Numbered from the stretch's first letter, positions 1-30,638 are shown. The stretch is 55,016 nucleotides of DNA from an uncultured Thermoplasmatales archaeon (GCA_964414415.1 CAYPWJ010000002.1:53300-108315); one strand, 5' to 3'. The notes: generated by a model not told the origin, from the sequence alone. Numbers and translations: made by a program.

Positions 1-1250
1 TTCCTCAAAGGAAGATGCACCTACCGAGGACGTTGATGTAACCGTCACCGACAACAACGTAACAGGAAATGAAAACACAACAACGGGTATTCGAGTCCAG
101 GCCGGTGGCTGTAGCTATGAGTATGATGAAAGTATTACGCTTGGAGAAGTAATCATTGAGAACAACAACGTCACCGGAATCGGTTATAGCGAAGGAGATG
201 ATGGTGGTCATGGAGTCCGTGTACATTCGGGCTATTATACCCGTATAGAATCAGTGAAAATTGATAACAACAACGTTTCAGGAGAAAAAGATACTGAAGG
301 ACATGGAATCCGAGTTCACTCGGCTGAGGAGAGTCTTGGCGTCGGCAGTGTAGGCATAACCAACAACGTGGTTGAATATCCTGGGTGCCAGGGAATCAGG
401 GTGCATTTGCACAAAAATTCCTCAAAGGAAGATGCACCTACCGAGGACGTTGATGTAACCGTCACCGACAACGAAGTAATAGGTAATGAATATACGAAAA
501 CAGGTATTCGAGTTCAGGCCGGTGGCCATAAATATGATTACGATGAGAGTATTATGCTTGGAGAAGTGATTATCGAGAACAATAACGTCACCGGAATCGG
601 TTATAGCTCAGAATCTGAGGGTGGTCATGGTGTCCGTGTACATTCGGGCTATTATACCCGCATAGAGTCGGTGAAAATTGATAACAACACCGTTTCAGGA
701 AATAAAGATACTGGAGGACATGGAATCTGGGTTCACTCAGGTTATAAGAGCTTTGGTGTCGGCAGCGTAGATGTTACTGACAACAAAGTTGAATATCCTG
801 GTTGTCAGGGAATTAGAGTGCATTTGCATGGAAATTCCACAGAGGAAGGAGTAACCATCACAGACAACAACGTAACAGGAGATGACTTCACAACTAAAGG
901 AATTAGAGTTGATACTTCCGCTGGTGTGTCAGGTCACAATATTACGTTGGAAGAAGTAGTTGTTGAAAATAACATAGTCACCGAAATCAATGGTAGCGGA
1001 CATACAGTATTAGGGATTCGTGTCCATGCAGGCGGTTCGGGTGAGGCTACCCATATGAAAGATGTTAGTGTAATAGGCAACGAGGTTACCGATGGTGCTG
1101 GAGAAGGAATCCGCGTCCAGACAGGAGGTAGGGACGAGAAAATAAGCACAATGGGGAGAGTAGTCGTAAAAAACAACGCTGTGACTGACAATGAAGACCG
1201 AGGTATTCGTGTTCACGCAGGAGCAGGAGGAGTAGGAGCAGGAGAAGGAT
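1..1250 (+). repeat. Intragenic tandem repeat, unit about 417 bp (139 aa). Copies at 1-417 (partial) and 418-834 are about 85-90% identical, and a more degenerate third copy follows.
   Basis: Exact 55-nt identity between nt 1-55 and 418-472. Protein repeats SVKIDNN(N/T)VSG..GHGIRVHS..VEYPGCQGIRVHLH.. Confidence 0.8.
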
Positions 1251-3373
1251 ACGGGGACTCCGGTACACCTACTGGTTCTAGTATCGATACGGCAATTGTT
1301 GAAGGTAACATTGTTATTGATAATGGTGTTATTGGACTTCGGGTCAGTGCAGGTGATAAAGCCAATGTTGACACGGCAACTATCGAAGACAACTACGTCG
1401 AAGGACACGAGGTAGGAATCTGGGACCGTGCCTGTGGCGAAGGCATCATTAAATCGTTGACCATCGATGAAAACCAAGTCAAGAGAAATACCGAATACGG
1501 TATTTTGCTCGATGACGGATCATGGCCATGTCCCAGAAGCGGTAGGACAAACCCTAGCGGTACTATAGAAAGCGTTGACGTCACAGAAAACACAATTGAA
1601 GATAATGGGGCTGGTGTTTGTGTCTTTGATATAATAAACGATGGAGACACTGAATCAGCAGTCACAATCAGCTACAACAACATTAGCAACAACACCTGGG
1701 GCATTCAGGTGCAGGAGACCTGTGAGGACGACATCGTTGACAACGAGTTCTGGTACAACGGCGGAGGCAGTGGAGGAACGGGGATCGCGCAAGAAAACGG
1801 TGGCGGCAATGGCGGCGCAATCCATCTCTATAAGGCTAACGACACCTATATCTCCGGAAACAACATGACGTACAACTATAACGGCATAGTGATGGAGGAC
1901 TGCGAGGACAACCTGGTGGAGGACAACGACATACACCAAACCCTGCCCGACGCATCGGGAGAAAATATTGGGGTTGTGATAATGGGGGGCGAGTCCTTCA
2001 ATGTCATCCAGCACAACAACGTCTCCGGCTATACTGACGGGATAGCTCTGGTAAACACGGGTCACGAGGAGGTGAGATACAACAACGTCTCCCAGAACGA
2101 CAACGGCATATACCTCTCTGGCTCTGATTACAACAACGTCACCGGTAACGACGTCCACGACAATGACGGCGACGGCATCTATCTCGATCAATCAGATTTC
2201 AACAACCTTACGGCAAACAATGTCTGGGGCAATGACGCGGGAATCTATATCCGGTCACACTCCAACTATAACAACCTTACGGCAAACAACGCCTGGGGCA
2301 ATGGTAAGGGCATCTATATGAGGTTTTACTCACACTACAACAATTTGACCGAAAACTATGCGGCTGACAACGACTACGGCATCTACCTCAAGGGACATAG
2401 CGTGGGCTCGGGCGATGGGCCTACCAATACCACCATACGCGACTGCACTGCCTCCAGCAACGCCATCTATGACTTCTACGCCACCAACTACACCGTCAAC
2501 ACCACCGTCACCAACCTCACCATGAGCAGCTACCCGACATCAGTTGATTTCACCTACGGCGACGGCATAGCGTTGAAGGGCGTGGATGAAAGCCAGGTGG
2601 AGCCATTCGACCAGCATGCGCCGCTCTATCGCTACGTCAACGTCACCAACGTCACCGAAACCTCCTGGATCAACGTCAGCATCCACTACACAGATGGAGA
2701 CCTTACCTACACCAGCGAGGACACACTGGACATGTACGAGTACACTGCATCAGGGTGGGCATCGGTAGGTGGAACCTGCGACGATGCCAACGACCAGGTT
2801 TGGGCGAACCTTTCCTCGTTCAGCATCTACGGCCTCTTCGGCGACATCACGCAGCTGAACCTGTCGCTCTACGAGGGATGGAACATGGTCTCGGTGCCCT
2901 GCAACCAGAGCCTGAACACCGCCGGGGAGCTCGCCGAGCTGGTCAACGGCGAGAGCGAGGGCGTGTGCACCGTCATCACCAGGTGGGACACCGCCAAGCA
3001 GCGGTACGTCAGCTACATCCCGGGCTCCGGCGAGGGCTTCGCCCTGTCCAACGGCACCGGCTACTTCGTCTACGTCACGGCTGATGTCAACGTGAACATC
3101 ACCGGTGACATCGTCACGCCGGACGTCGACCTGTCGCTCGAGGAGGGCTTCAACCTCGTCGGGTGGCCGTATCCCTACGACGCAGAGGCCAGCGACATCG
3201 CCGGCGACATCGACAACTGCGTCAAGGTCTCCATGTTCAACGGGTCGACGCAGACATGGATGGCCGAGTACATCGCGGCGGTGTCTGGAACGTCGTACGA
3301 CTTCGACGTGTTGATGGCCGACGGCGTGTTCGTCTTCGTCAACCCGGGACCGTCTGGCTGGCAGCCGAGATAG
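2..3373 (+). CDS. 5'-truncated giant secreted beta-helix (PbH1/NosD-like) surface protein, paralog 1. N-terminal part is built from about 139-aa tandem repeats. C-terminal about 560 aa are homologous to paralog 2.
   Basis: The frame stays open from window start, and the first 55 nt repeat exactly at 418. Repeated motifs GIRVH/NNVTG/NLTGN (parallel beta-helix repeat, dense N-x-S/T sequons). C-terminal bipartite module (EGWNMVSVP...GYFVYV / EGFNLVGWP...GVFVFVNPGPSGWQPR) shared with the next two genes. Confidence 0.8.
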   Translation, partial: SSKEDAPTEDVDVTVTDNNVTGNENTTTGIRVQAGGCSYEYDESITLGEVIIENNNVTGIGYSEGDDGGHGVRVHSGYYTRIESVKIDNNNVSGEKDTEGHGIRVHSAEESLGVGSVGITNNVVEYPGCQGIRVHLHKNSSKEDAPTEDVDVTVTDNEVIGNEYTKTGIRVQAGGHKYDYDESIMLGEVIIENNNVTGIGYSSESEGGHGVRVHSGYYTRIESVKIDNNTVSGNKDTGGHGIWVHSGYKSFGVGSVDVTDNKVEYPGCQGIRVHLHGNSTEEGVTITDNNVTGDDFTTKGIRVDTSAGVSGHNITLEEVVVENNIVTEINGSGHTVLGIRVHAGGSGEATHMKDVSVIGNEVTDGAGEGIRVQTGGRDEKISTMGRVVVKNNAVTDNEDRGIRVHAGAGGVGAGEGYGDSGTPTGSSIDTAIVEGNIVIDNGVIGLRVSAGDKANVDTATIEDNYVEGHEVGIWDRACGEGIIKSLTIDENQVKRNTEYGILLDDGSWPCPRSGRTNPSGTIESVDVTENTIEDNGAGVCVFDIINDGDTESAVTISYNNISNNTWGIQVQETCEDDIVDNEFWYNGGGSGGTGIAQENGGGNGGAIHLYKANDTYISGNNMTYNYNGIVMEDCEDNLVEDNDIHQTLPDASGENIGVVIMGGESFNVIQHNNVSGYTDGIALVNTGHEEVRYNNVSQNDNGIYLSGSDYNNVTGNDVHDNDGDGIYLDQSDFNNLTANNVWGNDAGIYIRSHSNYNNLTANNAWGNGKGIYMRFYSHYNNLTENYAADNDYGIYLKGHSVGSGDGPTNTTIRDCTASSNAIYDFYATNYTVNTTVTNLTMSSYPTSVDFTYGDGIALKGVDESQVEPFDQHAPLYRYVNVTNVTETSWINVSIHYTDGDLTYTSEDTLDMYEYTASGWASVGGTCDDANDQVWANLSSFSIYGLFGDITQLNLSLYEGWNMVSVPCNQSLNTAGELAELVNGESEGVCTVITRWDTAKQRYVSYIPGSGEGFALSNGTGYFVYVTADVNVNITGDIVTPDVDLSLEEGFNLVGWPYPYDAEASDIAGDIDNCVKVSMFNGSTQTWMAEYIAAVSGTSYDFDVLMADGVFVFVNPGPSGWQPR

Positions 3374-3403
3374 TCCTTCTTTATTTCTCCTCTCGTCTCT
3401 CCT
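3374..3403 (+). terminator. Pyrimidine (CT)-rich tract immediately downstream of paralog 1 stop. Putative archaeal terminator element.
   Basis: tccttctttatttctcctctcgtctctcct directly after the TAG stop. Analogous tracts follow paralogs 2 and 3. Confidence 0.35.
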
Positions 3404-3514
3404 GGATGCCCTGCCGCCTGTGGCGGCGTAGCCTGGGCTGTCGTCGCTGTCTGGCCATCCTGCTTTGTTAGCCATACCCTTTGAATGATTGCTCGCTGCT
3501 GCAGGCATTAAAAA

Positions 3515-3536
3515 TTTTAGACAAATATTTATACCA
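3515..3536 (+). promoter_or_regulatory. Putative BRE/TATA promoter of paralog 2 (TTTTAGACAAATATTTATACCA), about 65 nt upstream of the ATG. A GGAGG RBS sits about 10 nt upstream of the ATG.
   Basis: 22-mer conserved (19/22) upstream of paralog 3 (9223-9244). The core (A/G)TATTTATACC recurs upstream of the F390-synthetase-like gene (about 31922). Confidence 0.55.
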
Positions 3537-3600
3537 TGGGCTTATTATAACGTAATTCCATAAACCATGGAGATATATAGGATATAGGAGGAATAAAACC

Positions 3601-6600
3601 ATGAAACGAGCAACACATATTTTAGCGATAGCAGGAGCGGTGGCGGTGGCGGCCCTGGCAGTGATGGCGTTCGGCGCAGCGCAGGCAGACGCGGTCGGAG
3701 CAGACATCTCATCCTATGAGGGACCTGCCCCGGGAGATGTTGACGTGGTTGTCGATCCAACCACCACTACGAACCCGGATTATATAATGGAGGCGGTCCT
3801 GCCGATGACTCATACGTTCGGAACCGACGCTGCGGTAACGAGAGACTACGATGTAGGTGCAGATAAAGCTACGTTCAATATAAGCGGTTTAGCTGGAGAC
3901 TCAGGAGCGATTTTCTTCGATAACGACAGCGACGGGATAGCTGATTTCCAGCTCGGATTCCGAGATACAGATCATTCCGGAGGGCCCGCAGCAACTGTTT
4001 GGGTAAATCAGGGAGGAACATGGACAGAGGATACTGCATTCAGAAGCCTGACTGATTCTGATAGTGACGGCGTATACGAGTTTGGAGCCAATCCTATAAC
4101 GTCAGGTGGGAGACTTGGCACAATGCCGGATGTTTTCGATGGTGAAATCGCTAGTGATTATATTTTCATCGAGGTAGAGGAATCCGCCCTCGACTGTGAC
4201 TTCAAGTACGGAATCAGGGACCCTGCTGGAGATAACTACAATTTCGATGTCAGCACCAGTGGATGGGATTTTGACGCTACCAACGATATCGTCACAGGCA
4301 GCACCGTCCCGACAGGTAAAGGCATAAACACTGTCGGTGTAAATCCTGGCACCTATACAGAGCAGGTCACTATAGACAAGTCATTGACGCTGGTTTCCAT
4401 GGAAGGGCCTGAGGAGACGGAGATATCGTTGACAGAGAAGATGAATATCGGAGCCGACGATGTGACTGTTAAGGGATTCAATATAACCCGGGAAAGCGAC
4501 ATTAACATTATATACTTAACTGGGGCTGATGCTACAGTCGAGTGGAACATCTTTGAAGGCACAATCGATGGTTATGCGATAAGATTGGAAGGCCCCCCTG
4601 CCAACGGAGCTAAGATAGTGAACAATAAGTTTATTGGGACTAGGCATGCTGTTATGGATGCAGGTGCCAGCCAGGTCGGGATTGAAAATAATACAATTAT
4701 AGGCACGGGCGTGACAGGTGTACTGATAACGGACGGGACAGGAGGAACCGCGGCTAACGTTGACAATGTCAAAATAAAATACAATCTTTTCGAGAACATC
4801 GAAGGCGAGGATGTTTTCTCAGCAGTCGGTGTTTACGTAGGAGCGGGTAAAACGATAGACGGCCCCGGTATAGAAGTCAACTATAATCATTTCATTAACA
4901 ATAAGATGGGTGTTTATGCTTTAGAAGATACAGGCGATTTGGTGGACAAGGTTGACGCCACCTGCAACTGGTGGGGTGATGCATCCGGGCCGAACCATAC
5001 GAGCAACCCGCTTGGAAGCGGTGATAATGTCAGTGACAAGGTTGAATTTGTCCCGTGGCTCAATGCAACCTATCCTGATGGAGAGTGTATCGGTGGTACA
5101 TGCAAGACAGATATATGGGTTGACAACGACTATGACAGCTCTACACCGGGCTGGAACATAGACCATTTCGCAACCATACAGGACGGCGTGGACAGAGTTT
5201 GCGACGGTGGCACGGTCCACGTTGCAGCGGGAGCCTACAATGCGTCACTTCTCATAGATAAACCTCTAACATTGCAAGGAGCCGGAGCATCTCAGACCAT
5301 TATAAATGGATCCTCTAGTACTAAAGCTATGAAATTGCTTATAGAGGTGTACGGTAATCTTACTGTTGATGGATTCACTATCAATGCATCTGAAATCTGG
5401 GGAACAGTCTACGGTAGAGATGAACCATCTCTGCACGATGATAACCCAGGTCAATGGAACTTTACGAACAATACATTTGAACTGGGGACAATGTATTTTG
5501 ATCATACGGACGCCGATATAAAAATCTGTAACAACACGTTCAATACAACATGGGAGGCGGTTGGCACAGAGGAATGCACTGGAGCAATGGAAATCGGCCA
5601 TAACAAGATGAATTACGTTGATGACGATAATGAGGGCAATCCCGGACTCATCAAAATCTCTAACTGGCCTAAATACTGGGAAAACAGCAGCGGGAGTTTC
5701 CTTATACCGAACAATGCCACCGCCAAACAATGGATACACAACAATACCATGAACTGCAATGGTGCCATCGGGATAACGTATCATAGCTATCCTTCTGCCG
5801 AAAATTGGCAATCTTGGGGAGGCCCACAGGTTGTCGACAGTGCTGCCGTATTTAGCGATGTTGTCATAGAAAACAACGAAATCTCCGGCGTTGGCGATCT
5901 CAATGCTGCCGCCTATCCTGGCGTCTTTAATGAGTCTCCCTATCCTAACGCTGGCATTTTGTTAAAGAGAAATGGCAGTGGCACCGGGTTTGAAGACACA
6001 GTTATTTCCAGCAATACCATCACGGCAGATGCTGGCGCCGCCGAGGTGAACCAGGGAATCCATCTATCTGGAAACTGTACCGATACAACAATCACTGAAA
6101 ACTCGATAACGGGCTTCGACAATGCTGTCTACCTCAACACCACCACTGGCGAATACCCCTCCAGTACAGCAATTCATTACAACAATTTCGGTGGCAATAC
6201 CTACGGCGTCTACACCGAGGACCCCATCAATATGACCGACGCCACCTGCAACTGGTGGGGTCATCCATCCGGGCCGAACCACACTGACAATCCGTCCAAA
6301 GACCATGGGATAGGTGACAACGTGAGCGACAACGTCGACTTCTCGCCGTGGCTCAACGCGCCATATCCCGGCGGCAAAGCCATCGACTACTGGAACCCCA
6401 CCTCTGTTGATGGCGAGGCAGACATTGACGAAAAAGCGAACGCAGACACCACGGTAAATATCACGACTACCGAAGAGCAAAACGTCACCGTGCAGAACTA
6501 CGTGGGCGACCCCGAGCCCGGTGCAGGATCACCGCAGGGCATCGGCCCGATCGGCAAATACGTCGACGTGGCCGTCGAAAACGAAACGGCGGTTGAATGG

Positions 6601-9168
6601 CCCGTCAACATCACCATCTACTACACGCAGGCGGACCTCGACGCGGCTGGCATCCCCGAGACGTCATTGACAGAGATGCTCTACTACGACGAGACATCCG
6701 GTGAGTGGGAGGCATACAACGACACCGGCGTCAACACCGCAAACACCGACGGATACGAGGGCTACGTCTGGGCGAACGCCTGGAACGGCTACCAGCTCTC
6801 GCCGAAGGCACCGAGCGGCTTGATGGACGTCTGGGTCGACGACGATGCAGACCCGGGGTGGTATGACGCCGCGCATGTCAGGACCATCAAGGAGGGCATC
6901 GACAACGTCACCGCGGGCGGCACCGTCCACGTCTGGGACGGTACGTACCATGAGGAGAACATTTTCGTCAACAAGTCTATCAGCATCATCGGCAACACCT
7001 CTGTTGATGCCCGGAACAAGGCCGTTGAACTGAACACCAATGTTAGCTACACAGATAAGGGCTTCATCGTCCAGGCGGACCACGTCAACATATCGGGCTT
7101 CAACATCACCAACTGGGGTGGCATATATCCCTGCGGCGGCGTGCTCGTCAATCATTCCAGCCGCTGCAACATCTCAGGGAATGTCATGGCGGGTGACTAC
7201 GACGGTGTCAAACTCAACGCATCAGATGAAAACGTTGTCTATAACAATATCATCCTGGAATCCACGTATGGTGTCTGGATGGCCAACGGAAGCAGCCACA
7301 ACGTCATCGATTCGAACTTTATCAGAGACACACAGATTGGCATACTATATTACACCGAGGAACCTGCCTGCTGGAACACCATCGTCGGTAACAACATATC
7401 CCACAACCTCCTCTGGGGCATAGCTATGGAGTATACCTATCAGGATGAGATCATCGACAACGAGTTCTGGTACAACGGCGGAGGCAGTGGAGAAATGGTG
7501 ATTGCGCAAGAAAACGGTGGCAGCAATGGCGGCGCAATAGGCCTCCGGGGGGCCAACGACACCTACATTGGAGGAAACACCATGCGGTACAATTATCACG
7601 GCGTAGTGATGGACACTTGCGAGGACAACCTGGTGGAGTCCAACGACATCCAACAAACGCTGCCCGGTTGGAATCCCTCTGACCCATTGGAGGGAGATCC
7701 TCCTCCAATTGGCGTTATGATTGTGGAGGGCCGCTCCTATAACGTCATCCAGCATAACAACGTCTCCAGCTATCCTATTGGAATAGCTCTGGTGGGCACG
7801 ACTCACGAGAAGGTGAGATACAACGACATCTCTGCCAATGGATACGGCGTGAGCTTGGGTGGCACTGTTTTCAGCAACATCACTGGAAACGAGATATACA
7901 GCAACGCCGGATACGGCGTGCGCCTTGACAGCTCTGGTTACAACAACCTGACTGGGAACGAGATATACGACAACACCGACGACGGCATATATTTCCATAG
8001 CTCCCGTTACAACAATATCACTGGAAACGCCATCTGGGGCAACGACAACCGGGGAATCAATCTGTTGGACTCTCCCTGCAACAACCTGACCGGCAATTAC
8101 ATCTGGAACAATGCCGATGAAGGCGTCTACCTCGATTATCGGTCCAGCTACAACAACCTCACCGAGAACTACGTCGCCGACAACAGCCACGGCATCTACC
8201 TCGAGGGCTCCTCGGGTACGCTCCTCGAGAACACCACGGTACGCGACTGCGTCGCATCCGGCAACGCCATCTATGACTTCTACGCCACCGACTACACCGT
8301 CAACACCACCGTCACCAATCTCACCGTGTCGAGCTACCCGACGCCAGTCGATGTCGCCTACGGCGGCACCGTTGCGGTGAAGGGCGTCGACGAGAGCGAG
8401 ATAACGCCGTACGACGAGCACGCGCCGCTCAACCGCTACGTCAACGTCACCGGCAGCTCCTGGGTCAACATCAGCATCCACTACACAGATGGAGACCTCA
8501 CCTACACCAGCGAGGACACCCTGGGAATGTACGAGTATACCGGAACCAGCTGGTCAGAGGTGACGACAGCGGACCATTACCCGGATGACAACTATCTACA
8601 GGTGAACATCTCCTCGTTCAGCATCTACGGCCTGTTCGGCGACATCACGCAGCTGAACCTGTCGCTCTACGAGGGATGGAACATGGTCTCGGTGCCCTGC
8701 AACCAGAGCCTGAACACCGCCGGGGAGCTCGCCGAGCTGGTCAACGGCGAGAGCGAGGGCGTGTGCACCGTCATCACCAGGTGGGACACCGCCAAGCAGC
8801 GGTACGTCAGCTACATCCCGGGCTCCGGCGAGGGCTTCGCCCTGTCCAACGGCACCGGCTACTTCGTCTACGTCACGGCTGATGTCAACGTGAACATCAC
8901 CGGTGACATCGTCACGCCGGACGTCGACCTGTCGCTCGAGGAGGGCTTCAACCTCGTCGGGTGGCCGTATCCCTACGACGCAGAGGCCAGCGACATCGCC
9001 GGCGGCATCGACAACTGCGTCAAGGTCTCAAAGTTCAACGCGTCGACGCAGACGTGGCTGCCCGAGTACGTGCCAGGGCTCCCCGCCTCCAACGACTTCG
9101 CCGTCCGGATGGGCGAGGGCGTGTTCGTCTTCGTCAACCCGGGACCGTCTGGCTGGCAGCCCAGGTAA
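3601..9168 (+). CDS. Giant secreted beta-helix surface protein, paralog 2 (1855 aa). Has a signal peptide, PbH1 repeats, two CNWWG...GP...PWLNA modules, and the shared C-terminal bipartite module.
   Basis: N-terminus MKRATHILAIAGAVAVAALAVMAFGAAQADA (signal peptide). Repeats NNxxxGN / GIxL. Two copies of the motif ATCNWWG(D/H)xSGPNHT..GDNVSD.V.F.PWLNA. Last about 540 nt identical to 2830-3373. Confidence 0.9.
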   Translation: MKRATHILAIAGAVAVAALAVMAFGAAQADAVGADISSYEGPAPGDVDVVVDPTTTTNPDYIMEAVLPMTHTFGTDAAVTRDYDVGADKATFNISGLAGDSGAIFFDNDSDGIADFQLGFRDTDHSGGPAATVWVNQGGTWTEDTAFRSLTDSDSDGVYEFGANPITSGGRLGTMPDVFDGEIASDYIFIEVEESALDCDFKYGIRDPAGDNYNFDVSTSGWDFDATNDIVTGSTVPTGKGINTVGVNPGTYTEQVTIDKSLTLVSMEGPEETEISLTEKMNIGADDVTVKGFNITRESDINIIYLTGADATVEWNIFEGTIDGYAIRLEGPPANGAKIVNNKFIGTRHAVMDAGASQVGIENNTIIGTGVTGVLITDGTGGTAANVDNVKIKYNLFENIEGEDVFSAVGVYVGAGKTIDGPGIEVNYNHFINNKMGVYALEDTGDLVDKVDATCNWWGDASGPNHTSNPLGSGDNVSDKVEFVPWLNATYPDGECIGGTCKTDIWVDNDYDSSTPGWNIDHFATIQDGVDRVCDGGTVHVAAGAYNASLLIDKPLTLQGAGASQTIINGSSSTKAMKLLIEVYGNLTVDGFTINASEIWGTVYGRDEPSLHDDNPGQWNFTNNTFELGTMYFDHTDADIKICNNTFNTTWEAVGTEECTGAMEIGHNKMNYVDDDNEGNPGLIKISNWPKYWENSSGSFLIPNNATAKQWIHNNTMNCNGAIGITYHSYPSAENWQSWGGPQVVDSAAVFSDVVIENNEISGVGDLNAAAYPGVFNESPYPNAGILLKRNGSGTGFEDTVISSNTITADAGAAEVNQGIHLSGNCTDTTITENSITGFDNAVYLNTTTGEYPSSTAIHYNNFGGNTYGVYTEDPINMTDATCNWWGHPSGPNHTDNPSKDHGIGDNVSDNVDFSPWLNAPYPGGKAIDYWNPTSVDGEADIDEKANADTTVNITTTEEQNVTVQNYVGDPEPGAGSPQGIGPIGKYVDVAVENETAVEWPVNITIYYTQADLDAAGIPETSLTEMLYYDETSGEWEAYNDTGVNTANTDGYEGYVWANAWNGYQLSPKAPSGLMDVWVDDDADPGWYDAAHVRTIKEGIDNVTAGGTVHVWDGTYHEENIFVNKSISIIGNTSVDARNKAVELNTNVSYTDKGFIVQADHVNISGFNITNWGGIYPCGGVLVNHSSRCNISGNVMAGDYDGVKLNASDENVVYNNIILESTYGVWMANGSSHNVIDSNFIRDTQIGILYYTEEPACWNTIVGNNISHNLLWGIAMEYTYQDEIIDNEFWYNGGGSGEMVIAQENGGSNGGAIGLRGANDTYIGGNTMRYNYHGVVMDTCEDNLVESNDIQQTLPGWNPSDPLEGDPPPIGVMIVEGRSYNVIQHNNVSSYPIGIALVGTTHEKVRYNDISANGYGVSLGGTVFSNITGNEIYSNAGYGVRLDSSGYNNLTGNEIYDNTDDGIYFHSSRYNNITGNAIWGNDNRGINLLDSPCNNLTGNYIWNNADEGVYLDYRSSYNNLTENYVADNSHGIYLEGSSGTLLENTTVRDCVASGNAIYDFYATDYTVNTTVTNLTVSSYPTPVDVAYGGTVAVKGVDESEITPYDEHAPLNRYVNVTGSSWVNISIHYTDGDLTYTSEDTLGMYEYTGTSWSEVTTADHYPDDNYLQVNISSFSIYGLFGDITQLNLSLYEGWNMVSVPCNQSLNTAGELAELVNGESEGVCTVITRWDTAKQRYVSYIPGSGEGFALSNGTGYFVYVTADVNVNITGDIVTPDVDLSLEEGFNLVGWPYPYDAEASDIAGGIDNCVKVSKFNASTQTWLPEYVPGLPASNDFAVRMGEGVFVFVNPGPSGWQPR

Positions 9169-9213
9169 CCCCTTTCTCTCCCTTTTCCCTTCTTTTTCTA
9201 TCCTGTTTTTTTG
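9169..9213 (+). terminator. Pyrimidine-rich tract downstream of the paralog 2 stop (putative terminator).
   Basis: cccctttctctcccttttcccttctttttctatcctgttttttt. It ends in an oligo-T run, which is typical of archaeal termination. Confidence 0.4.
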
Positions 9214-9222
9214 CGCCGGATA

Positions 9223-9244
9223 TTTTAGATAAGTATTTATACAA
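9223..9244 (+). promoter_or_regulatory. Putative BRE/TATA promoter of paralog 3 (TTTTAGATAAGTATTTATACAA), about 47 nt upstream of the ATG. The RBS is GGAAGGAGG.
   Basis: Near-identical to the element at 3515-3536. Confidence 0.55.
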
Positions 9245-9290
9245 ATGACGGTTATCTTTTTTACTCCAACAGAGGAAGGAGGCACGGATT

Positions 9291-12200
9291 ATGAAAGCAA
9301 GACATGCATATATTCTTGGAATTGTAGGGATAGTCGCGTTTGTCGGATTCATGTCGATGAACGCCGACGCAAACGGGACAGATGTCATCTATGAGGAGGA
9401 CTTCGAGGATAGCTGTCCGCCATCCGGCTGGACGATCGGCGAGAAGCCTGCAAACGGCGATACATGGGCCTGTAGCACCGTTTTGCCGGGCATCTGTGTT
9501 CAGGGGGGCGCCAGTGGTACCTTTATGGCGTTTGACGATGACGATTACGGCCCGGGCAGCGACAATCCACAGGAGTGGCTTGTTTCGCCTGCTGTCAACT
9601 GTGGTAACTACGAGAATATAGCCCTGTCGTGGACCGGAGACTTCCAGGACTTCGCCGGTCACGGCGAATTCTGGGTGAACGTCTCCAACGATGCCGGCGT
9701 GACGTGGACAAACGTCTATCATGCAGACATGGATGTCGGGGGGTTTGACACTGACTCAGCCATCCCGGTGGATATCTCCGCCGTGGCCGACCATTCCAGC
9801 CATGTCATGGTCAATTTTACCTACAGCGATACAGATTCCACGGGGACTTCAGACAATGCGTGGGGGGCGCTGGTTGACGACGTCACCCTGACGGGAACAC
9901 CGACGGGGTTTGTCTATATCGACGAAAACCACAACGGCTCGTATGACGACGGCGAGTGGCACGGCGTCTTCATTGCCGATGCGGTGGACAACGCCGAACG
10001 CGGCGACACCATCTACGTCTGGAACGGCAGCTACTGGGAGACCAACATCACCATCGACATGCCGCTGACTGTCATCGGGAACACGTCCGTCGACGCTCTC
10101 GCAGGCATCGACATGCCGCGGACCACGTACCTGAACTATACCGACAAGGGCTTCATCATCAACGATACAAGCCACGTCAACATCTCCGGCTTCTACCTTG
10201 TAAACAAAGGGAGGATGGAGATGTGCGGCGGCGTAAGCCTGAACCACTCCAGCCACTGCAACATCTCCGGCAACATCATCATGGGTGACGCGGACGGCAT
10301 CTACCTCAACGACTCGCACTACAACACCATATATAACAACTTCATCTATGACAACAATTTTGTGGGTATCTGGATGGTTGGGTCCAGCAACAACACCATC
10401 GAGATGAACAATCTCACCGGCAATTACTACGGCATCCTCTACGAGCCGTACGAGGCCATGCAGCTCAAGTTTTCTTGGAACACCATCCGGCACAACAACA
10501 TCTCATATAATGGCGGGTGGGGGATTGTCATGCGCGGCACAGACAACGAGACCATCGAATATAACGATTTTTACGGCAACGGCCTGGATGGCGGGGGCGC
10601 CATCCATTTCATTGGCGTCAACGACGGCATCATTGCTCACAACACCATGATGTACAACTACCCGTGGGGCGTCTGGCTGGAGCACTGCGAAGAGGTCACC
10701 GTTGAAGATAACACCATCCTGGGGGGAGAGACCGTAAACGACAATGGAAACGCACACACCTACCACGTCTATCTAAAGGAATCTGAGGGATGGCATCTCC
10801 ACGACGAGGTGCATTTCTCCCATCGATACGGCCGAGAAGTAATTGATCTGCCGCTTCCCGACGTCGACGGCGAATACAAGGTGCGTATATCCCAGTCTGG
10901 CGGAACGGCGGCTCACATCGACTACGTGGCGCTGCTCGACGGCGGGGAGACGCCGCCCGCCGGTGCTTCATACGTGGACGGTGGGGACATCCTCCAGAAA
11001 GTCGTGGCTGCGGACAACGACGTCGCCGACGCCTGGGGGAAGACCATCGAGCTTTCGTGGGATGGAACGTTTACGTCGACTCGCCTCGTCCTGGTGGCCA
11101 ACGAGGAGCAGCCGATACCTGAGATTCCCCATCGGACGCCGTCGGTCATGTTTCCGTCGTTCATGGAGCCCTACCGGATAGAGGAGACGGGCGCTGTCGA
11201 CGTCGACGGAACCCTCGATGACCTGGGGGATGCGGATTTCCGGGCATACTGGATCCCGACGACCGGTCATCCCCGCGGGTACACGTACGTCTGGCTTCGC
11301 TCCGACGGCGAGTACCTCTCCGGCGCGATGGAGGTCACCGGGGACAACACCTACGATGACACGGGATGGGGCTCGCTGTACATCGCGACTGGCCGCGAGG
11401 TGCAGGAGTTCCGCGTCACCGCCACCGATCATGCTTACGGCGTCGACTCCTTCGTCTACACCGATGCCGTCGGATGGCAGCACATGCTCTACGAGTTCCG
11501 GATCCCGCTGGACGAGATCGGGGCAGCAATCGGCGACACTGTCCGCGTGGGCTACGGCAGCTACGGTACCTTTGGGCCAATGACAGGCCCGACTGGGGTC
11601 TACATTAGCAACGGCATGTACCTTCCGCCCAACACTGACGAATGCTTCAACACGCTGGAGGACAACACCATATCCGGCCATGACTACGGCGTCCTTCTTT
11701 CAGGCACGGACAACGAGACACTCGCCGGCAACACGATAACCTATAACTTTGAGGCTGGTGTCTACTCGATGTATAGCGAAAACATCTCCATCATAGACCA
11801 CAACAATTTTTCTCATAATGGACCGGTGTCAGGATGGGAGTACCATACTGGCGGCGTTGTTTTCGAACATACGCATCACAGCGACGTCGCCGGCAACTTT
11901 TTCACCGACAACAGGGGAGGTGCCATCAATTTCATTGCTTCCCGGCACAACGACATCATCGACAACGACATCATCGAAAACTGCGGCTGGCTGCACGGGA
12001 TAGGGATAATAGAGAACGCAAACCATACCTACATCGCCACAAATAATATACGAGACAACACAGGGCCGGGGATAGAAATCTTGCATACGGGATACACCCG
12101 GGTAGAGGACAACAACATCACCGGCAACGCATTTGCTGGCATATACATGTATCGCGCTCCATATACCGACATCAACCGCAATTTCATCGCAGACAACATA

Positions 12201-13079
12201 GACGGCGAAAGCGGCATACATATCGGGAAGGAGTCAAATCACTCCAGCATCACGAACAACACCATCAAGGCCAACGGCGTCGGCATCTACATCAACGGTG
12301 GACCAAACACCACTGGCTATTATTGGAACGTCGATACACAGATACACTGGAACCAGATATACGACAACACGGAATACGGCCTCTGGTACGAGATGTCCAC
12401 CGGCGGGACGACGCCCTACGTCAACGCGACGTGGAACTGGTGGGGTGCCGCCAACGGCCCGAGCAGCGACAGCGGCAACATGCAGGACCCCGTCACCAAT
12501 ACGTATGCCACCGGGTCCGGCGACGAGATCAACGGCAGCGCCGCATACGCCAACATCCACTTCGACCCCTGGATGGGCCTCTATCTCTACCAGGGCTGGA
12601 ACATGGTCTCCCCGGGCTTCATCCCCGAGGTGGGCACAGCCGGTGACCTGGCAGACCTGATCGGCGACAACTGCACCGTCATCACCAGGTGGGACAGCGA
12701 CAAGCAGCGCTACGTCAGCTACATCCCGGGCTCCGGCGCGGGTTTCACGCTGCGTGACGGCGAAGGCTACTTCGTCTACGTCACCCACGACACCAACGTA
12801 CAGTTCACCGGCGGCCTCGCATCGCCGAGCATCGACCTGACGTTGAGCGACGGGTTCAACCTGGTCGGATGGCCCGACGTTGGCTACCGGCAGGCCAGCT
12901 GGTTCGCCGGCCAGATCGACAACGCCGTCAAGGTGTCCATGTATGACGCTGAGACGCAGACGTGGCTGCCCGAGTACATCGCCGCGCTGCCCATCTCCAA
13001 CGACTTCGACGTGCTGATGGGCGACGGCGTCTTCGTGTTCGTCAACCCGGGACCGTCGAACTTGGGCGGGGGAGCGTAG
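9291..13079 (+). CDS. Giant secreted beta-helix surface protein, paralog 3 (1262 aa). Has a signal peptide, an N-terminal choice-of-anchor-J/MAM-like domain, PbH1 repeats, one NWWG module, and a divergent copy of the shared C-terminal module.
   Basis: N-terminus MKARHAYILGIVGIVAFVGFMSMNADA. YEEDFEDSCPPSGWTIGE..GDTWA. Repeats NISGN/NLTGN/NNITGN. TWNWWGAANGPSS. C-terminus QGWNMVSPG...GYFVYV...GFNLVGWP...GVFVFVNPGPS. Confidence 0.9.
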   Translation: MKARHAYILGIVGIVAFVGFMSMNADANGTDVIYEEDFEDSCPPSGWTIGEKPANGDTWACSTVLPGICVQGGASGTFMAFDDDDYGPGSDNPQEWLVSPAVNCGNYENIALSWTGDFQDFAGHGEFWVNVSNDAGVTWTNVYHADMDVGGFDTDSAIPVDISAVADHSSHVMVNFTYSDTDSTGTSDNAWGALVDDVTLTGTPTGFVYIDENHNGSYDDGEWHGVFIADAVDNAERGDTIYVWNGSYWETNITIDMPLTVIGNTSVDALAGIDMPRTTYLNYTDKGFIINDTSHVNISGFYLVNKGRMEMCGGVSLNHSSHCNISGNIIMGDADGIYLNDSHYNTIYNNFIYDNNFVGIWMVGSSNNTIEMNNLTGNYYGILYEPYEAMQLKFSWNTIRHNNISYNGGWGIVMRGTDNETIEYNDFYGNGLDGGGAIHFIGVNDGIIAHNTMMYNYPWGVWLEHCEEVTVEDNTILGGETVNDNGNAHTYHVYLKESEGWHLHDEVHFSHRYGREVIDLPLPDVDGEYKVRISQSGGTAAHIDYVALLDGGETPPAGASYVDGGDILQKVVAADNDVADAWGKTIELSWDGTFTSTRLVLVANEEQPIPEIPHRTPSVMFPSFMEPYRIEETGAVDVDGTLDDLGDADFRAYWIPTTGHPRGYTYVWLRSDGEYLSGAMEVTGDNTYDDTGWGSLYIATGREVQEFRVTATDHAYGVDSFVYTDAVGWQHMLYEFRIPLDEIGAAIGDTVRVGYGSYGTFGPMTGPTGVYISNGMYLPPNTDECFNTLEDNTISGHDYGVLLSGTDNETLAGNTITYNFEAGVYSMYSENISIIDHNNFSHNGPVSGWEYHTGGVVFEHTHHSDVAGNFFTDNRGGAINFIASRHNDIIDNDIIENCGWLHGIGIIENANHTYIATNNIRDNTGPGIEILHTGYTRVEDNNITGNAFAGIYMYRAPYTDINRNFIADNIDGESGIHIGKESNHSSITNNTIKANGVGIYINGGPNTTGYYWNVDTQIHWNQIYDNTEYGLWYEMSTGGTTPYVNATWNWWGAANGPSSDSGNMQDPVTNTYATGSGDEINGSAAYANIHFDPWMGLYLYQGWNMVSPGFIPEVGTAGDLADLIGDNCTVITRWDSDKQRYVSYIPGSGAGFTLRDGEGYFVYVTHDTNVQFTGGLASPSIDLTLSDGFNLVGWPDVGYRQASWFAGQIDNAVKVSMYDAETQTWLPEYIAALPISNDFDVLMGDGVFVFVNPGPSNLGGGA

Positions 13080-13143
13080 GCTCTCCTCTCTTTCTCCTCT
13101 CTCCCTCTCTTTCTCCCTTTGCTCCCCCAAAACCTTTTTTAAG
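13080..13143 (+). terminator. Long (CT)n-rich tract followed by an oligo-T run, downstream of paralog 3 (putative terminator).
   Basis: ctctcctctctttctcctctctccctctctttctccctttgctcccccaaaacctttttt. Confidence 0.4.
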
Positions 13144-13162
13144 GCGCGCTTGATGTCGTAGC

Positions 13163-13738
13163 ATGGCCGACGAGCAGGAGTTACAGCATCTCAGAGTCGT
13201 TCTTGATTATCTTCCCTGCGAGGACTGCGAGGACCGCGTTCCCTGGGAGGAGCGCGAGTATCTGTGCTCGGTGTGCGGCAGAATCAGCAGAAACGTCTCC
13301 GCGGAGATAGCGGTGCCCCGCTGGCGGACGGAGAACGGCGACGTCGTCGCCGTCGAAGGCCGTGACATCGAGGAGCTCCGCCCCGAGGTCTCCATGGTGG
13401 AACAGGAGCCCGAGGAACCCGTGGAGCCCGAGGAGCAGGAGCCGATGGAGGACATCGAGGTGCTCGAGATCGGCGTCGAGGTCCCCGAGGCGGAGGCAGA
13501 GCCCGAGGAGGACGAGGAGCTCCCCGAGTGGGAGACCGTCGAGGAGACGCCGTACACGGTCGGCGAGTACACGCTCCACACCAAGGAGGCCACCCTGCGA
13601 GGCGGCCGGAAACAGCAGATCTATTTTTTCGCAAAGAAAGAAAAAAAAGATGCGACTCCCTGCGCCAAGCCGGAGGGCTACGACGTCAAAGTCAACGAAA
13701 AAACAGGGCTGCCCGTGCTCAAGCGAAAAAAGAAATAG
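13163..13738 (+). CDS. Hypothetical protein: N-terminal CxxC...CxxC zinc-ribbon-like region, a long acidic (E/P-rich) linker, and a basic C-terminal domain.
   Basis: CEDCED...CSVCG. The acidic run EPEEPVEPEEQEPMEDIEVLE. C-terminus YTLHTKEATLRGGRKQQIYFFAKKEKK...PEGYDVKVNEKTGLPVLKRKKK. No family recognised. Confidence 0.5.
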   Translation: MADEQELQHLRVVLDYLPCEDCEDRVPWEEREYLCSVCGRISRNVSAEIAVPRWRTENGDVVAVEGRDIEELRPEVSMVEQEPEEPVEPEEQEPMEDIEVLEIGVEVPEAEAEPEEDEELPEWETVEETPYTVGEYTLHTKEATLRGGRKQQIYFFAKKEKKDATPCAKPEGYDVKVNEKTGLPVLKRKKK

Positions 13739-13744
13739 CCGACG

Positions 13745-14749
13745 ATGCACATCGAGGAGTTCGACTACCAGCTGCCGAAGGACGCCATCGCGCAGCAGCC
13801 CGCCGTCCCCCGTGACAGCTGCCGCCTGCTCGTGATGGACGACGGCATCCGGCACCACCGGTTCACCGGCATCCTTGGATATCTGCGTGAGGGAGACGTC
13901 CTGGTGCTCAACGACACCCGGGTGCGGTACGCCCGCATCCACGCCCGCAAGGACACCGGCGGCAAGGTCGAATTGCTGGTGCTCGGTGAAGAGCGCAGCG
14001 GATATCGATGCATGGTCAAGGGCCGCGTCCGCGAGGGCACCGTCATCGAGCTGCCCGACGACACCGCTGCCACCGTGACCAGGAAGGACGGCGGCGTCTG
14101 CCGCCTCGACATCCCGCTGGAGATGGAGCAGCTGGAGGCGATGGGCGAGATGCCGCTGCCGCCCTACATCACCGCCGACCTCGACCCGGCGACGAAGGAG
14201 CGATACCAGAGCGTCTACGCCGACGAGAAAGGCTCCGTCGCAGCGCCGACCGCCGGCCTGCATTTCACCCCCGAGCTGCTGGAGTGCATCCACGAGGCAG
14301 GCGTCGAGATCGTCACCCTGACGCTTCACGTCGGCATCGGGACCTTCCTGCCCGTGCGGAGCGACCACGTCGAGGAGCACGACATGCATCCCGAACGCTT
14401 CACCATCGACGCCCGGGCGGCGGAGACAATCAACGAGGCCGAGGGCGACGTCGTCGCCGTCGGCACCACCACCATCCGGGCGCTGGAGAGCGCCTCCCGC
14501 GACGGCGTCGTCGCGCCCATGGAACGCTGGACCGACCTGTTCATCTACCCCGGCTACCGCTGGCAGTCACCCGTCACCGGGATGCTCACCAACTTCCATC
14601 TGCCGCAGTCAACGCCGTTGCTCATGGTCTGTGCCTACGCCGGCAGGCAGCGCGTCGTGCAGGCCTACCGGGAGGCACTGCAGCAGGGCTACCGGTTCCT
14701 CAGCTTCGGGGACGCGATGTTCATCAGGGGGCCACCGTGTTCGAGGTAG
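13745..14749 (+). CDS. queA: S-adenosylmethionine:tRNA ribosyltransferase-isomerase (QueA), bacterial type.
   Basis: Near-colinear match to bacterial QueA: FDYQLP..IAQQP..RDSCRLLV, MPLPPYI, VAAPTAGLHFT, GTTTIRALES, LTNFHLPQST, RFLSFGDAMFI. Confidence 0.9.
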   Translation: MHIEEFDYQLPKDAIAQQPAVPRDSCRLLVMDDGIRHHRFTGILGYLREGDVLVLNDTRVRYARIHARKDTGGKVELLVLGEERSGYRCMVKGRVREGTVIELPDDTAATVTRKDGGVCRLDIPLEMEQLEAMGEMPLPPYITADLDPATKERYQSVYADEKGSVAAPTAGLHFTPELLECIHEAGVEIVTLTLHVGIGTFLPVRSDHVEEHDMHPERFTIDARAAETINEAEGDVVAVGTTTIRALESASRDGVVAPMERWTDLFIYPGYRWQSPVTGMLTNFHLPQSTPLLMVCAYAGRQRVVQAYREALQQGYRFLSFGDAMFIRGPPCSR

Positions 14750-15795
14750 CAGCCCGGCAGGGCACCGCACGGGCCGGCGTGCTCCACATGCCACACGGCG
14801 ACGTCGAGACACCTGTCTTTCTGCCCGTTGCGACCAAGGCAGCCGTCAAGACGCTGACGCCGGAGGAGACATGGACGACCGGCAGCCGGATGCTCATCGT
14901 CAACGCCCTCCACCTCTACCGGCGGGGCATCGAACGCGTCACCCGTGCCGGCGGCATCCACCAGTTCATGCAATGGGACGGCGCCGTCGTCAGCGACAGC
15001 GGCGGCTTCCAGCTCATCAAGCAGTTCCCCTGCGACATCGAAAGCGACGGCGTCCGGTTTACCATGCCCGACGGCACCCGCGACCTGTTCACCCCCGAGA
15101 AATCCATCAGGATGCAGGAACAGCTCGGCGTCGACATCGCATTGACGCTCGACGACTGCCCCTCCCATCCCGCGACGCCGCAGCGCGTCGCATCCGCGGT
15201 CGACACCACCATCCGATGGGCGGAGCGCTGCCAGGGACCCGGCCGGTTCGCCATCCTGCAGGGCGGCACCGTCGAGGCGGAGCGCGTCCGATGCGCCCGC
15301 GCCGTCGCCGACATGGACTACGACGGCTACGCCATCGGCGGCCTCTGCATCGGCGAGCCGAAGGAAGCGATGCACCGGATGGTCGAGACAACCCTGGAGC
15401 ACCTGCCGCCCGGGAAGCCGCGGCATCTCATGGGCGTCGGCTCACCGGGGGACATCTGGCGGGCCGTCAGGGCCGGCGTCGACATCTTCGACAGCGCCTA
15501 TCCAACCAGGAACGCCAGGCACGGCACCATTTTTACCTCCCGCGGCAGAGTCAACCTCGGGCGAGCGAAGACCACCGGCGACGTGATAGACGACAGATGT
15601 GACTGCTACACGTGCCGGCGGTTCAGCCTCGACTACCTCAACCACCTGTTCCGGGAGAAAGACCCGCTGGGCCCGCGCCTCGCCACGATACACAACCTCA
15701 CCCACGTCAACCGCGTCGTCACGGCGGCCAGGGAGCGCATCCTGGCGGGAAAAACGCTTAAAACAAACGAGGGCATACAGTTTGATGCTGTTTGA
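14737..15795 (+). CDS. tgt: Queuine/preQ1 tRNA-ribosyltransferase (bacterial-type Tgt, about 352 aa, no PUA domain). GTG start overlaps the queA stop by 13 nt.
   Basis: QFMQWDGAVVSDSGGFQ (catalytic DSGGFQ), YDGYAIGGLCIGEPK, PRHLMGVGSPGDI, FDSAYPTRNARHG, zinc motif CDCYTCRRFSLDYLNHL. The length fits the bacterial QTRT rather than arcTGT. Confidence 0.85.
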   Translation: MFEVAARQGTARAGVLHMPHGDVETPVFLPVATKAAVKTLTPEETWTTGSRMLIVNALHLYRRGIERVTRAGGIHQFMQWDGAVVSDSGGFQLIKQFPCDIESDGVRFTMPDGTRDLFTPEKSIRMQEQLGVDIALTLDDCPSHPATPQRVASAVDTTIRWAERCQGPGRFAILQGGTVEAERVRCARAVADMDYDGYAIGGLCIGEPKEAMHRMVETTLEHLPPGKPRHLMGVGSPGDIWRAVRAGVDIFDSAYPTRNARHGTIFTSRGRVNLGRAKTTGDVIDDRCDCYTCRRFSLDYLNHLFREKDPLGPRLATIHNLTHVNRVVTAARERILAGKTLKTNEGIQFDAV

Positions 15796-30471: not shown

Positions 30472-30545
30472 GGGCTCTTGGTCTAGCTGGTTATGACGTC
30501 GCCTTGACATGGCGGAGGTCCTGGGTTCAAACCCCAGAGAGCCCA
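30472..30545 (+). tRNA. tRNA-Val (anticodon GAC).
   Basis: Cloverleaf: acceptor GGGCTCT/AGAGCCC, anticodon stem CGCC-loop TTGACAT-GGCG, T-arm CTGGG TTCAAAC CCCAG, discriminator A. Coordinates +/-1. Confidence 0.8.
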
Positions 30546-30553
30546 CTCATCCG

Positions 30554-30638
30554 GCAGGGGTAGCCAAGCCAGGTTAACGGCGCAGCGTTCAGGGCGCTGT
30601 CCTGCAGAGGTCCAAGGGTTCAAATCCCTTCCCCTGCA
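30554..30638 (+). tRNA. tRNA-Leu (anticodon CAG), class II with a long variable arm.
   Basis: Acceptor GCAGGGG/CCCCTGC, anticodon stem CAGCG-loop TTCAGGG-CGCTG, long variable arm TCCTGCAGAGGTCC, T-arm AAGGG TTCAAAT CCCTT. Coordinates +/-1. Confidence 0.8.

Follow-up and report, generated by a model that had tools for sequence, protein, structure and literature searches.

Concerted evolution of a widespread C-terminal module in a tandem array of beta-helix protein genes from an uncultured Thermoplasmatales archaeon, as suggested by comparative sequence analysis

At one end of a 55,016-nt stretch of DNA from an uncultured Thermoplasmatales archaeon (GCA_964414415.1, CAYPWJ010000002.1:53300-108315; the window), three giant genes for beta-helix proteins, here called g1, g2 and g3, follow one another on the same strand; their 5' parts are distinct and their 3' ends are related, in g1 and g2 to the point of nucleotide identity. 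The locus thus raises the question of how the tails came to be so alike and what the proteins may gain from a common tail. The explanation favoured here is that g1-g3 form a tandem family whose three members are transcribed independently and encode large secreted right-handed beta-helix proteins, each a mosaic of its own passenger and a common C-terminal module whose copies evolve in concert and would serve for docking; a probability of about 0.7 is given to this explanation as a whole (tandem family, mosaic, concerted tails, and docking role jointly).

The tandem arrangement reported in a preliminary description, which had been drawn up from the sequence alone, is real: the open reading frames and their translations agree on three consecutive genes on the plus strand (Table 1), and the remaining 40 kb of the window holds housekeeping genes. 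g2 is present in a public collection as P0001. For g1, the contig's database gene call (P0002, 939 aa) begins only at nt 554, at an ATG inside the frame, a hint that the g1 ORF may have an interruption farther upstream. Both g2 and g3 come with a promoter-like box, a Shine-Dalgarno-like GGAGG, an ATG start codon, and a signal-peptide-like N-terminus of their own; the box has only two matches in the window and none in 100 shuffles. Conservation with the region ahead of r3, a gene of the related array considered below, extends over most of the approximately 85 nt between this box and the g2 start codon, and a 177-nt stretch reaching into the region coding for the g2 signal peptide is 89% identical there. 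Signal peptides had been assigned to all three proteins; this stands for g2 and g3, judging from their translations, while the N-terminus of g1 lies outside the window.

Table 1. Positions of the array genes and of their repeats, domains, and candidate expression signals in the window
Feature	Position (nt)	Strand	Basis or remark
g1, beta-helix gene	2..3373 (ORF 2/254-3373)	+	5' end beyond window edge; 1123 codons visible
g1 internal tandem repeat, 417 nt (139 aa)	1..848	+	2 copies 84-88%, third weaker copy; within beta-helix
Older g1/g2 homology block, g1 side	1655..3373	+	62-85% nt identity outside tract
Putative recent gene-conversion tract, g1 copy	2813..3231	+	419 nt, 3 mismatches; exact 2837-3206
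C-terminal module of g1, two ~78-aa repeats	2876..3370	+	alignment, profile search, AF2 model
Pyrimidine-rich tract after g1 stop	3374..3402	+	direct reading; putative terminator
Promoter-like box TTTTAGACAAATATTTATAC, BRE/TATA-like, upstream of g2	3515..3534	+	box search and r3 conservation
g2, secreted multi-beta-helix, 1855 aa	3601..9168	+	ORF, Pfam, NCBIfam
g2 signal-peptide-like N-terminus MKRATHILAIAGAVAVAALAVMAFGAAQADA	3601..3693	+	translation read; kept in r3
g2 beta-helix segment, aa 990-1350	6568..7650	+	38% to g3 aa 129-476
Older g1/g2 homology block, g2 side	7360..9168	+	62-85% nt identity outside tract
Putative recent gene-conversion tract, g2 copy	8611..9029	+	exact 8635-9004
C-terminal module of g2	8674..9165	+	alignment, profile search, AF2 model
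Pyrimidine-rich tract after g2	9169..9213	+	direct reading; putative terminator
Promoter-like box TTTTAGATAAGTATTTATAC upstream of g3	9223..9242	+	box search, conservation in relative
g3, secreted beta-helix, 1262 aa	9291..13079	+	ORF, Pfam, NCBIfam
g3 signal-peptide-like N-terminus MKARHAYILGIVGIVAFVGFMSMNADA	9291..9371	+	translation read; kept in r2
g3 beta-helix segment, aa 129-476	9675..10718	+	38% to g2 aa 990-1350
C-terminal module of g3	12588..13076	+	alignment; 62% aa identity to g1/g2 modules
Pyrimidine-rich tract after g3	13080..13130	+	direct reading; putative terminator

Profile searches on the three proteins returned beta-helix repeats above curated cutoffs, in keeping with their description as PbH1/NosD-like: Pfam Beta_helix (PF13229) matches g1, g2, and g3 with E values of 1e-40 to 1e-47 and scores of 136-159 bits (cutoff 25.9) over four to five stretches, NosD (PF05048) also matches, and the parallel beta-helix repeat TIGR03804 scores 73-102 bits in all three (cutoff 19.45). 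NosD proper (TIGR04247) is ruled out by scores of 53-133 bits against a cutoff of 300, and there are no nos genes in the 55-kb window. The disaggregatase and choice-of-anchor J models that had been suggested for these proteins found no match, either at E <= 0.01 with the whole proteins or at E <= 10 with N-terminal and middle fragments; PDB sequence searches with g2 and g3 gave no significant match. The C-termini, which end in ...VFVFVNPGPSGWQPR or ...NPGPSNLGGGA, have no hydrophobic helix and no NCBIfam match, so that an archaeosortase substrate (PGF-CTERM) is rejected. The reported richness in N-x-S/T sequons holds, with 2.2-3.2 per 100 aa in g1-g3, about twice the expectation from shuffling (z ~4-8), as against at most 0.8 per 100 aa in neighbouring cytoplasmic proteins; from their sequences, the g1-g3 proteins are probably N-glycosylated. 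The N-terminal regions had been taken as unrelated, which fails for one pair of beta-helix segments, aa 990-1350 of g2 and aa 129-476 of g3, that are 38% identical.

Homology between g1 and g2 had been placed over the last ~560 aa, from nt 1738 and 7456 onwards, which is close to the boundaries found here: it starts at about 1655 and 7360 and continues to the stop codons (~570 aa). The final ~540 nt are not 100% identical, as had been claimed; the exact match covers 370 nt, inside a slightly longer tract with few mismatches (Table 1), and the last ~140 nt of the two genes are only ~78% identical. Positions 3240-3296 are strongly diverged between g1 and g2 (~40 mismatches and a 3-nt indel), and identity is high again across the last ~70 nt. 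The identical tract is discrete, has sharp borders, and exceeds chance: among codons that specify the same amino acid in both genes, synonymous differences are found at 2 of 139 inside the tract versus 98 of 308 outside (log10 P ~ -23). g3 has a diverged copy of the module, as the preliminary description stated, with 62% aa identity to both g1 and g2, and its tail has a stretch of 67 nt with 3 mismatches in common with theirs. Strong purifying selection combined with codon bias may account for some of the short stretches conserved in nucleotides, the one of 67 nt among them, but cannot account for the 370-nt tract. Gene conversion between the g1 and g2 tails, already proposed in the preliminary description, is well supported by this tract lying inside flanks of 62-85% identity, and a syntenic array, when compared with this one, lends it greater support still. 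In the latest event, ~400 nt were probably copied between g1 and g2 by non-reciprocal recombination of neighbouring direct repeats.

The syntenic array is carried by a related metagenome-assembled genome (MAG), GCA_964514975.1, in the order FEN1-r1-r2-r3-192aa-QueA-TGT; its housekeeping neighbours are 66-85% identical to those in the window. r1 (1620 aa) is the ortholog of g1 (54% over 1094 aa) and r2 that of g3 (44% over 989 aa). The 5' part of g2 resembles r3 (58% over 621 aa), and its 3' 600 aa resemble r1 and g1 (53-55%) and, less closely, r3 (33%); compared with the MAG, the genes of g2 type and g3 type have changed places. Exchanges on a larger scale have probably given g2 its chimeric make-up, with a 5' part of r3 type and a 3' part of g1/r1 type. 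Modules are 62-90% identical to one another within the window and 95-98% within GCA_964514975.1, and 41-46% between the two genomes; paralogues are thus closer within a genome than orthologues are between genomes. The array of GCA_964514975.1 also has exact tracts of its own (491, 117, and 70 nt). These comparisons show paralogous modules that evolve in concert, apparently through gene conversion.

The module itself, of ~165 aa, is a tandem of two ~78-aa alpha/beta units. Its AF2 model, based on a 15-sequence alignment, has a pLDDT of 86.9 (31.7 for a model from 3 sequences); no match to the module turned up in Pfam, NCBIfam, or the PDB. The module has two conserved cysteines, which might pair in a disulphide. 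Finding its relatives needed an exhaustive profile search: a word-index search with the tail alone gave 0 matches, and with a 30-sequence alignment 12 proteins, while the exhaustive search gave at least 1,253 cluster representatives (50% identity) with E <= 1e-3, of which 324 also pass E <= 1e-10. The module ends no more than 15 aa from the C-terminus in 142 of 162 proteins, with the internal duplication visible, and the passengers ahead of it include NosD/Beta_helix, PKD, Big_13, FG-GAP, Peptidase_C25, S8, and cohesin domains. Of 117 members that are 300 aa or longer, a crude hydrophobicity test found signal-peptide-like N-termini in 70 and a TM-like C-terminus in only 1. The module thus belongs to a large family that has no curated model and is nearly always found at the extreme C-terminus; named members are almost all from Thermoplasmata or Thermoplasmatota MAGs. 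A scan of genome contigs with the module found only an ANME-1 half-module, and a metagenome scan found 5 short loci, none with an array. Three other module loci (L004, L008, and L009) encode single copies, so the family as a whole is not characterised by tandem arrays. Scans of viral contigs and tblastn against phage records found no relatives; the module's lone fold match is a marine viral protein (BFVD A0A8D9C8P8; annotation putative). Nothing relevant came out of literature searches by motif and topic.

Could the identical segment be an artefact of assembly, two diverged tails having been collapsed or joined into a chimeric consensus? Its source is a MAG, where assembly across repeats longer than k is prone to error; the assembly of run ERR5414699 in Logan breaks at the g1/g2 repeat, and searches of other assemblies turned up neither g1 nor g2, as called, as an intact gene. 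However, both copies of the tract are bordered on both sides by distinct sequence within one contig, so that an artefact would need two switches. A contig of the independent Logan assembly (L001, k=31) is 100% identical to 9132-13483, and its start coincides with the first 31-mer that occurs in the g2 tail alone, as a real two-copy repeat predicts; the break lies exactly where shared 31-mers end, which points to the presence of both continuations in the reads. The independently assembled GCA_964514975.1 displays the same pattern in different sequences, with its 491-nt exact tract and its highly similar tails. An assembly artefact is thus an unlikely cause of the tract, and a merged consensus of this kind has a very slight chance of being the explanation. 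Cassette shuffling and a possible surface-variation locus were also suggested in the preliminary description. In a programmed form of such a locus, as in pilE/pilS, vls, or diversity-generating retroelements (DGRs), frequent shuffling between donor cassettes and expression sites would alter the cell surface. Homologous 3' cassettes in direct orientation with a very recent exchange, the swapped gene order and chimeric g2 relative to the related MAG, and the fast divergence of tails between genomes would fit such a system. Its expected parts are missing, however: the start signals of g2 and g3 mark both as complete genes and not silent cassettes, and the 55-kb window has no recombinase, transposase, or reverse transcriptase, and no inverted repeats of the invertible-promoter type. 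Moreover, the part exchanged is the conserved tail and not the exposed, variable passenger, and there is one recent tract only; a divergence of 15-38% over the remainder of the shared region suggests that exchanges are rare. A variation locus is accordingly very improbable.

Base composition could instead point to domain capture, as opposed to divergence in situ, as the source of the mosaic: g1 and g2 would have gained their unique 5' parts by recent horizontal transfer from a low-GC donor, and these parts would have been joined to tails already resident. GC3 is low there, at 0.35-0.52 over nt 2-1800 of g1 and 0.43-0.58 over nt 3601-6000 of g2, whereas the shared 3' regions reach 0.85-0.95 and neighbouring genes 0.62-0.88 (mostly at least 0.8). 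The orthologous segments of r1 and r3 are, however, equally low in GC3 at ~75-80% nt identity, so that any transfer would be older than the split of the lineages, and a database search gave no close foreign donor; recent horizontal transfer of the low-GC3 parts is rejected on the ground that the related MAG has the same pattern, and the capture scenario is improbable. The remaining alternative concerns function: the module might not be an envelope anchor at all, and might act as a secretion or quality-control signal, in oligomerisation, or in binding a ligand (glycan or metal/haem), with gene conversion a by-product of adjacency. Nothing speaks directly against this; the strict C-terminal position behind unrelated passengers and the homogenisation within genomes are more easily reconciled with one common partner in the cell than with a range of external ligands, and a non-anchor role is considered rather unlikely.

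The position of the module, its modularity, and its concerted evolution suggest an envelope-docking role. Under the favoured mosaic explanation, each protein would join a lineage-specific passenger (one to three NosD/PbH1-type beta-helices plus unassigned domains) to the common module, which would act in docking, sorting, or attachment by holding the different passengers, without a covalent bond, to a single lineage-specific partner in the envelope. Homogenisation would keep every copy of the module compatible with this partner, and the passengers would act as adhesins or as polysaccharide-binding or -cutting enzymes. A broader proposal, which is put forward tentatively and at less than even odds, is that the module is an unrecognised surface docking domain found throughout the Thermoplasmatota, with a role like that of SLH domains or dockerins, and fastens secreted proteins of many kinds to a lineage-specific receptor in the envelope; divergence between genomes and homogenisation within them would then reflect co-evolution with the receptor, perhaps driven by viruses. 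Viruses perhaps use the same interaction of module and receptor, a hint of this being that the module's only fold match is the marine viral protein.

Several known systems offer parallels. Archaeal PbH1/NosD-like surface proteins, such as the 'adhesin-like' and PbH1 proteins of methanogens, resemble the array proteins in having several beta-helix segments, a signal peptide, large size, and dense sequons; the array proteins differ in that they have no disaggregatase, PGF-CTERM, or TM anchor, and their module lies outside the described beta-helix families. Like SLH domains, type I dockerins, the T9SS CTD, and PGF-CTERM, the module is strictly C-terminal, follows unrelated extracellular passengers, and occurs several times per genome, but it resembles none of them in sequence or fold and is a globular two-repeat alpha/beta domain with neither a TM helix nor a sortase-type motif. 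Dockerin copies within one genome are reported to be more alike than orthologues, and the module behaves likewise. Gene-converted families (bacterial tuf and rRNA genes, chlamydial pmp genes and other paralogous surface-protein genes) also have long identical tracts in diverged paralogues, greater identity within than between genomes, and tandem direct orientation; the array differs from them in being homogenised in the 3' domain only, the 5' passengers staying distinct. With pilE/pilS, vlsE, and DGRs the array has in common recombination between repeated segments of surface-protein genes, but it has no silent cassettes, dedicated enzyme, or invertible element, and the conserved rather than the variable part is exchanged.

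Gene conversion at this locus is a textbook case in an archaeal MAG and involves no new mechanism; it acts on an undescribed tail domain. To our knowledge, homogenisation confined to the 3' part of surface-protein genes has not been described in an uncultured archaeal lineage. Module tails are also sites where metagenome assemblies break. Some Thermoplasmatota have no classical wall; the module is a testable candidate for a general archaeal surface-attachment domain, and its family deserves a profile model.

The first 13.1 kb of the window is occupied by three + strand genes (g1, g2, and g3), whose proteins all score well over the cutoffs of the Pfam Beta_helix and NosD models and also match the TIGR03804 repeat, in agreement with the same-strand beta-helix array of the preliminary description; all three fall below the cutoff for NosD subfamily membership. 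N-x-S/T sequons, also noted there, occur at 2.2-3.2 per 100 aa, about twice the frequency in shuffled sequences and far above that in cytoplasmic neighbours. Of the signal peptides assigned to all three proteins, those of g2 and g3 are borne out by typical signal-peptide-like N-termini; g1 begins beyond the window edge. The database call for g1 (P0002, 939 aa) opens at an internal Met (ATG at nt 554), so the g1 ORF may be interrupted farther 5', perhaps inside a 417-nt repeat array. This 417-nt (139-aa) tandem repeat lies within the g1 beta-helix, with two copies (1-848) at 84-88% and a third, weaker copy at 851. The N-terminal regions, described as unrelated, are indeed mostly different, yet g2 aa 990-1350 matches g3 aa 129-476 at 38% identity. 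The locus thus encodes a tandem paralogous family of secreted, sequon-rich beta-helix proteins, the passengers of which would be adhesins or glycan-binding or glycan-cutting modules.

Coordinates of the array, its counterpart in a related genome (locus L010), and other features
Feature	Locus	Position	Strand	Length (aa)	Description
g1	window	open from 2, stop at 3373	+		ORF, beta-helix
g2	window	3601-9168	+	1855	ORF, beta-helix
g3	window	9291-13079	+	1262	ORF, beta-helix
acidic protein	window	13163-13738		191	directly downstream of array
QueA	window	13745-14749
TGT	window	14008-15795		595	longest ORF
two tRNAs	window	30472-30638
large ORF	window	36726-40025		1099	no Pfam match
DUF11-repeat protein	window	50095-55014 (off 3' end)		>1640	giant secreted protein
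r1	L010			1620	module-bearing beta-helix gene
r2	L010			1225	module-bearing beta-helix gene
r3	L010			2115	module-bearing beta-helix gene
half-module protein	L002 (ANME-1)	9218-10249			ends in a single module unit

Homology between g1 and g2, claimed from about 1738 and 7456, respectively, is clear from near 1655 and 7360 to both stops. Exact identity had been put at about 540 nt; the exact run is 370 nt (2837-3206 = 8635-9004), or 419 nt with three mismatches, and the earlier observation is sound with imprecise numbers. On the 3' side of the tract, 3240-3296 is diverged, with g1, g2, and g3 at roughly equal distances from one another, and a conserved end follows. Among codons for identical amino acids, g1 and g2 differ synonymously at 98 of 308 outside the tract and at 2 of 139 inside it (log10 P about -23). 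An assembly artefact, through collapse or chimerism, could produce such a tract; this is unlikely, because three observations together argue against it. A Logan (k=31) assembly of run ERR5414699 contains one contig identical to window 9132-13483, which begins exactly at the first 31-mer separating the g2 tail from the g1 tail, as expected if the reads contain both tails; copy-specific sequence borders the tract in both genes; and a second MAG has like tracts.

This second MAG (GCA_964514975.1) was found with g2 as query, through protein P0019 on a 172-kb contig. Its locus L010 is syntenic with the window (FEN1, r1, r2, r3, a 192-aa acidic protein, QueA, TGT, OMP decarboxylase, and further genes), and the neighbour proteins of the two loci are 66-85% identical. 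The counterpart of g1 is r1 (54% over 1094 aa). In promoter region, signal peptide, and N-terminal sequence, r2 is of the g3 type and r3 of the g2 type (g2 and r3 share 89% nucleotide identity over a stretch that begins shortly before the start and reaches into the signal-peptide codons), so that the order of g2-type and g3-type genes is reversed between the two loci. Over its 3' 600 aa, g2 is 53-55% identical to r1 and g1 and 33% to r3, which makes it a chimera of an r3-type 5' part and an r1/g1-type 3' part. Judged from these similarities, rearrangement of the array took place after the two lineages diverged (L010 1118-16348 vs window 2-13079). Tail identity is high inside each genome (62-90% in that of the window, 95-98% in the relative) and only 41-46% between genomes; the relative has exact tracts of its own (491 nt in r1/r3, 117 nt in r2/r3, and 70 nt in r1/r2). 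Such a pattern marks concerted evolution driven by recurrent gene conversion, and it is seen in two genomes assembled independently of each other. Conversion, proposed initially among these surface-protein genes, is thus upheld by the identical tract, the synonymous contrast, and the greater likeness of tails within than between genomes.

The further suggestion of a surface-variation locus is not sustained. A promoter-like box, TTTTAGAYAARTATTTATAC, stands upstream of g2 and g3 (two occurrences in the window, none in shuffles), each of which also has its own GGAGG, ATG, and signal peptide; g1, g2, and g3 are each followed by a pyrimidine-rich terminator-like tract. Inverted repeats of the invertible-promoter type were not found, and the window contains no recombinase, transposase, or reverse transcriptase. 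It is the conserved tail that has been exchanged, and not the variable passenger. These features support occasional homogenising recombination over evolutionary time and disfavour a programmed switching device.

GC3 is 0.35-0.58 in the unique 5' parts of g1 (2-1800) and g2 (3601-6000), 0.85-0.95 in their shared 3' parts, and mostly at least 0.8 in neighbouring genes. A chimeric contig or recent transfer is rejected as the source, since the orthologous parts of r1 and r3 (L010 2618-4100 and 10001-12100) share the dip; the pattern is old and real. It could mean that the passengers came from a foreign source long ago, that conversion of the exchanged parts is GC-biased, or both.

The window is a piece of archaeal chromosome. 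Housekeeping functions encoded include QueA-like and archaeosine-type TGT proteins, OMP decarboxylase, both DNA primase subunits (small and large), Gins51, the RFC large subunit, RpoD with a ferredoxin insert, and ribosomal proteins S13 and S4. In the public collection g2, g3, and the shortened g1 call lie together on one NCBI contig (122,059 bp), and relatives of the array proteins that bear names come nearly all from Thermoplasmata or Thermoplasmatota MAGs. At 90% identity the large ORF clusters with proteins from MAGs that bear the name Thermoplasmatota archaeon, and roughly a dozen proteins from Thermoplasmatota MAGs and metagenomes are ≥90% identical; one record calls a fragment of it 'ferrous iron transport protein A'. 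The highly acidic protein, without a Pfam match, has two CxxC pairs near its N-terminus (zinc-ribbon-like) and is 81% conserved in the related MAG, where it likewise comes right after the array. The TGT ORF carries an arginine-rich N-terminal extension that is probably spurious; the 352-aa TGT of the related MAG aligns to 14737-15792. A fourth giant secreted protein has DUF11 repeats (8 stretches, E 5e-70) and 5.85 sequons per 100 aa, three times the shuffle expectation and denser than in g1-g3; no C-terminal module is visible because the window end cuts the gene.

The shared tail comprises the last ~165 aa (GWNMVS...CTVITRWD...GYFVYV / GFNLVGWP...CVKVS...GVFVFV), an internal duplication of a ~78-aa unit. 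The diverged copy described in g3 is confirmed, at 62% aa identity to the g1/g2 module. The tail sequence has no match in Pfam, NCBIfam, or PDB, and an exhaustive HMMER search with a three-sequence profile gives 1,253 cluster representatives at E <= 1e-3 and 324 at E <= 1e-10; it is thus a large C-terminal domain family without a curated model. Of the 162 proteins retrieved, 142 have no more than 15 residues between module and C-terminus, and some carry three ~78-aa units or two modules. In 78 members, no Pfam model covers the module, and the preceding domains are NosD/Beta_helix (19), PKD (12), Big_13, FG-GAP, Peptidase_C25, subtilase, cohesin, and others. Among the 117 members of at least 300 aa, a crude test of hydrophobicity finds a signal-peptide-like N-terminus in 70 (many others are fragments) and a TM-like C-terminus in only one. 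A protein of a Methanophagales/ANME-1 MAG (JAPVWK010000012.1) ends in half a module, 45% identical to module residues 1-77, so the repeat unit occurs beyond Thermoplasmatota too.

AlphaFold2 with 15 sequences gives a confident two-lobed alpha/beta model of the tail (m622be6b37308, window 8668-9165; pLDDT 86.9, pTM 0.82). Its sole significant fold match is BFVD A0A8D9C8P8 (Foldseek E 2.8e-5, TMq 0.62, 16% identity), which comes from an uncultured marine phage and is annotated as 'putative hemin binding protein'; the source may be a virus of marine Thermoplasmatota with this fold. This domain family is the most interesting by-product of the analysis. The tail may instead serve as a secretion signal, in oligomerisation, or in ligand binding; we infer that it would dock or sort its various passengers through one envelope partner specific to the lineage.
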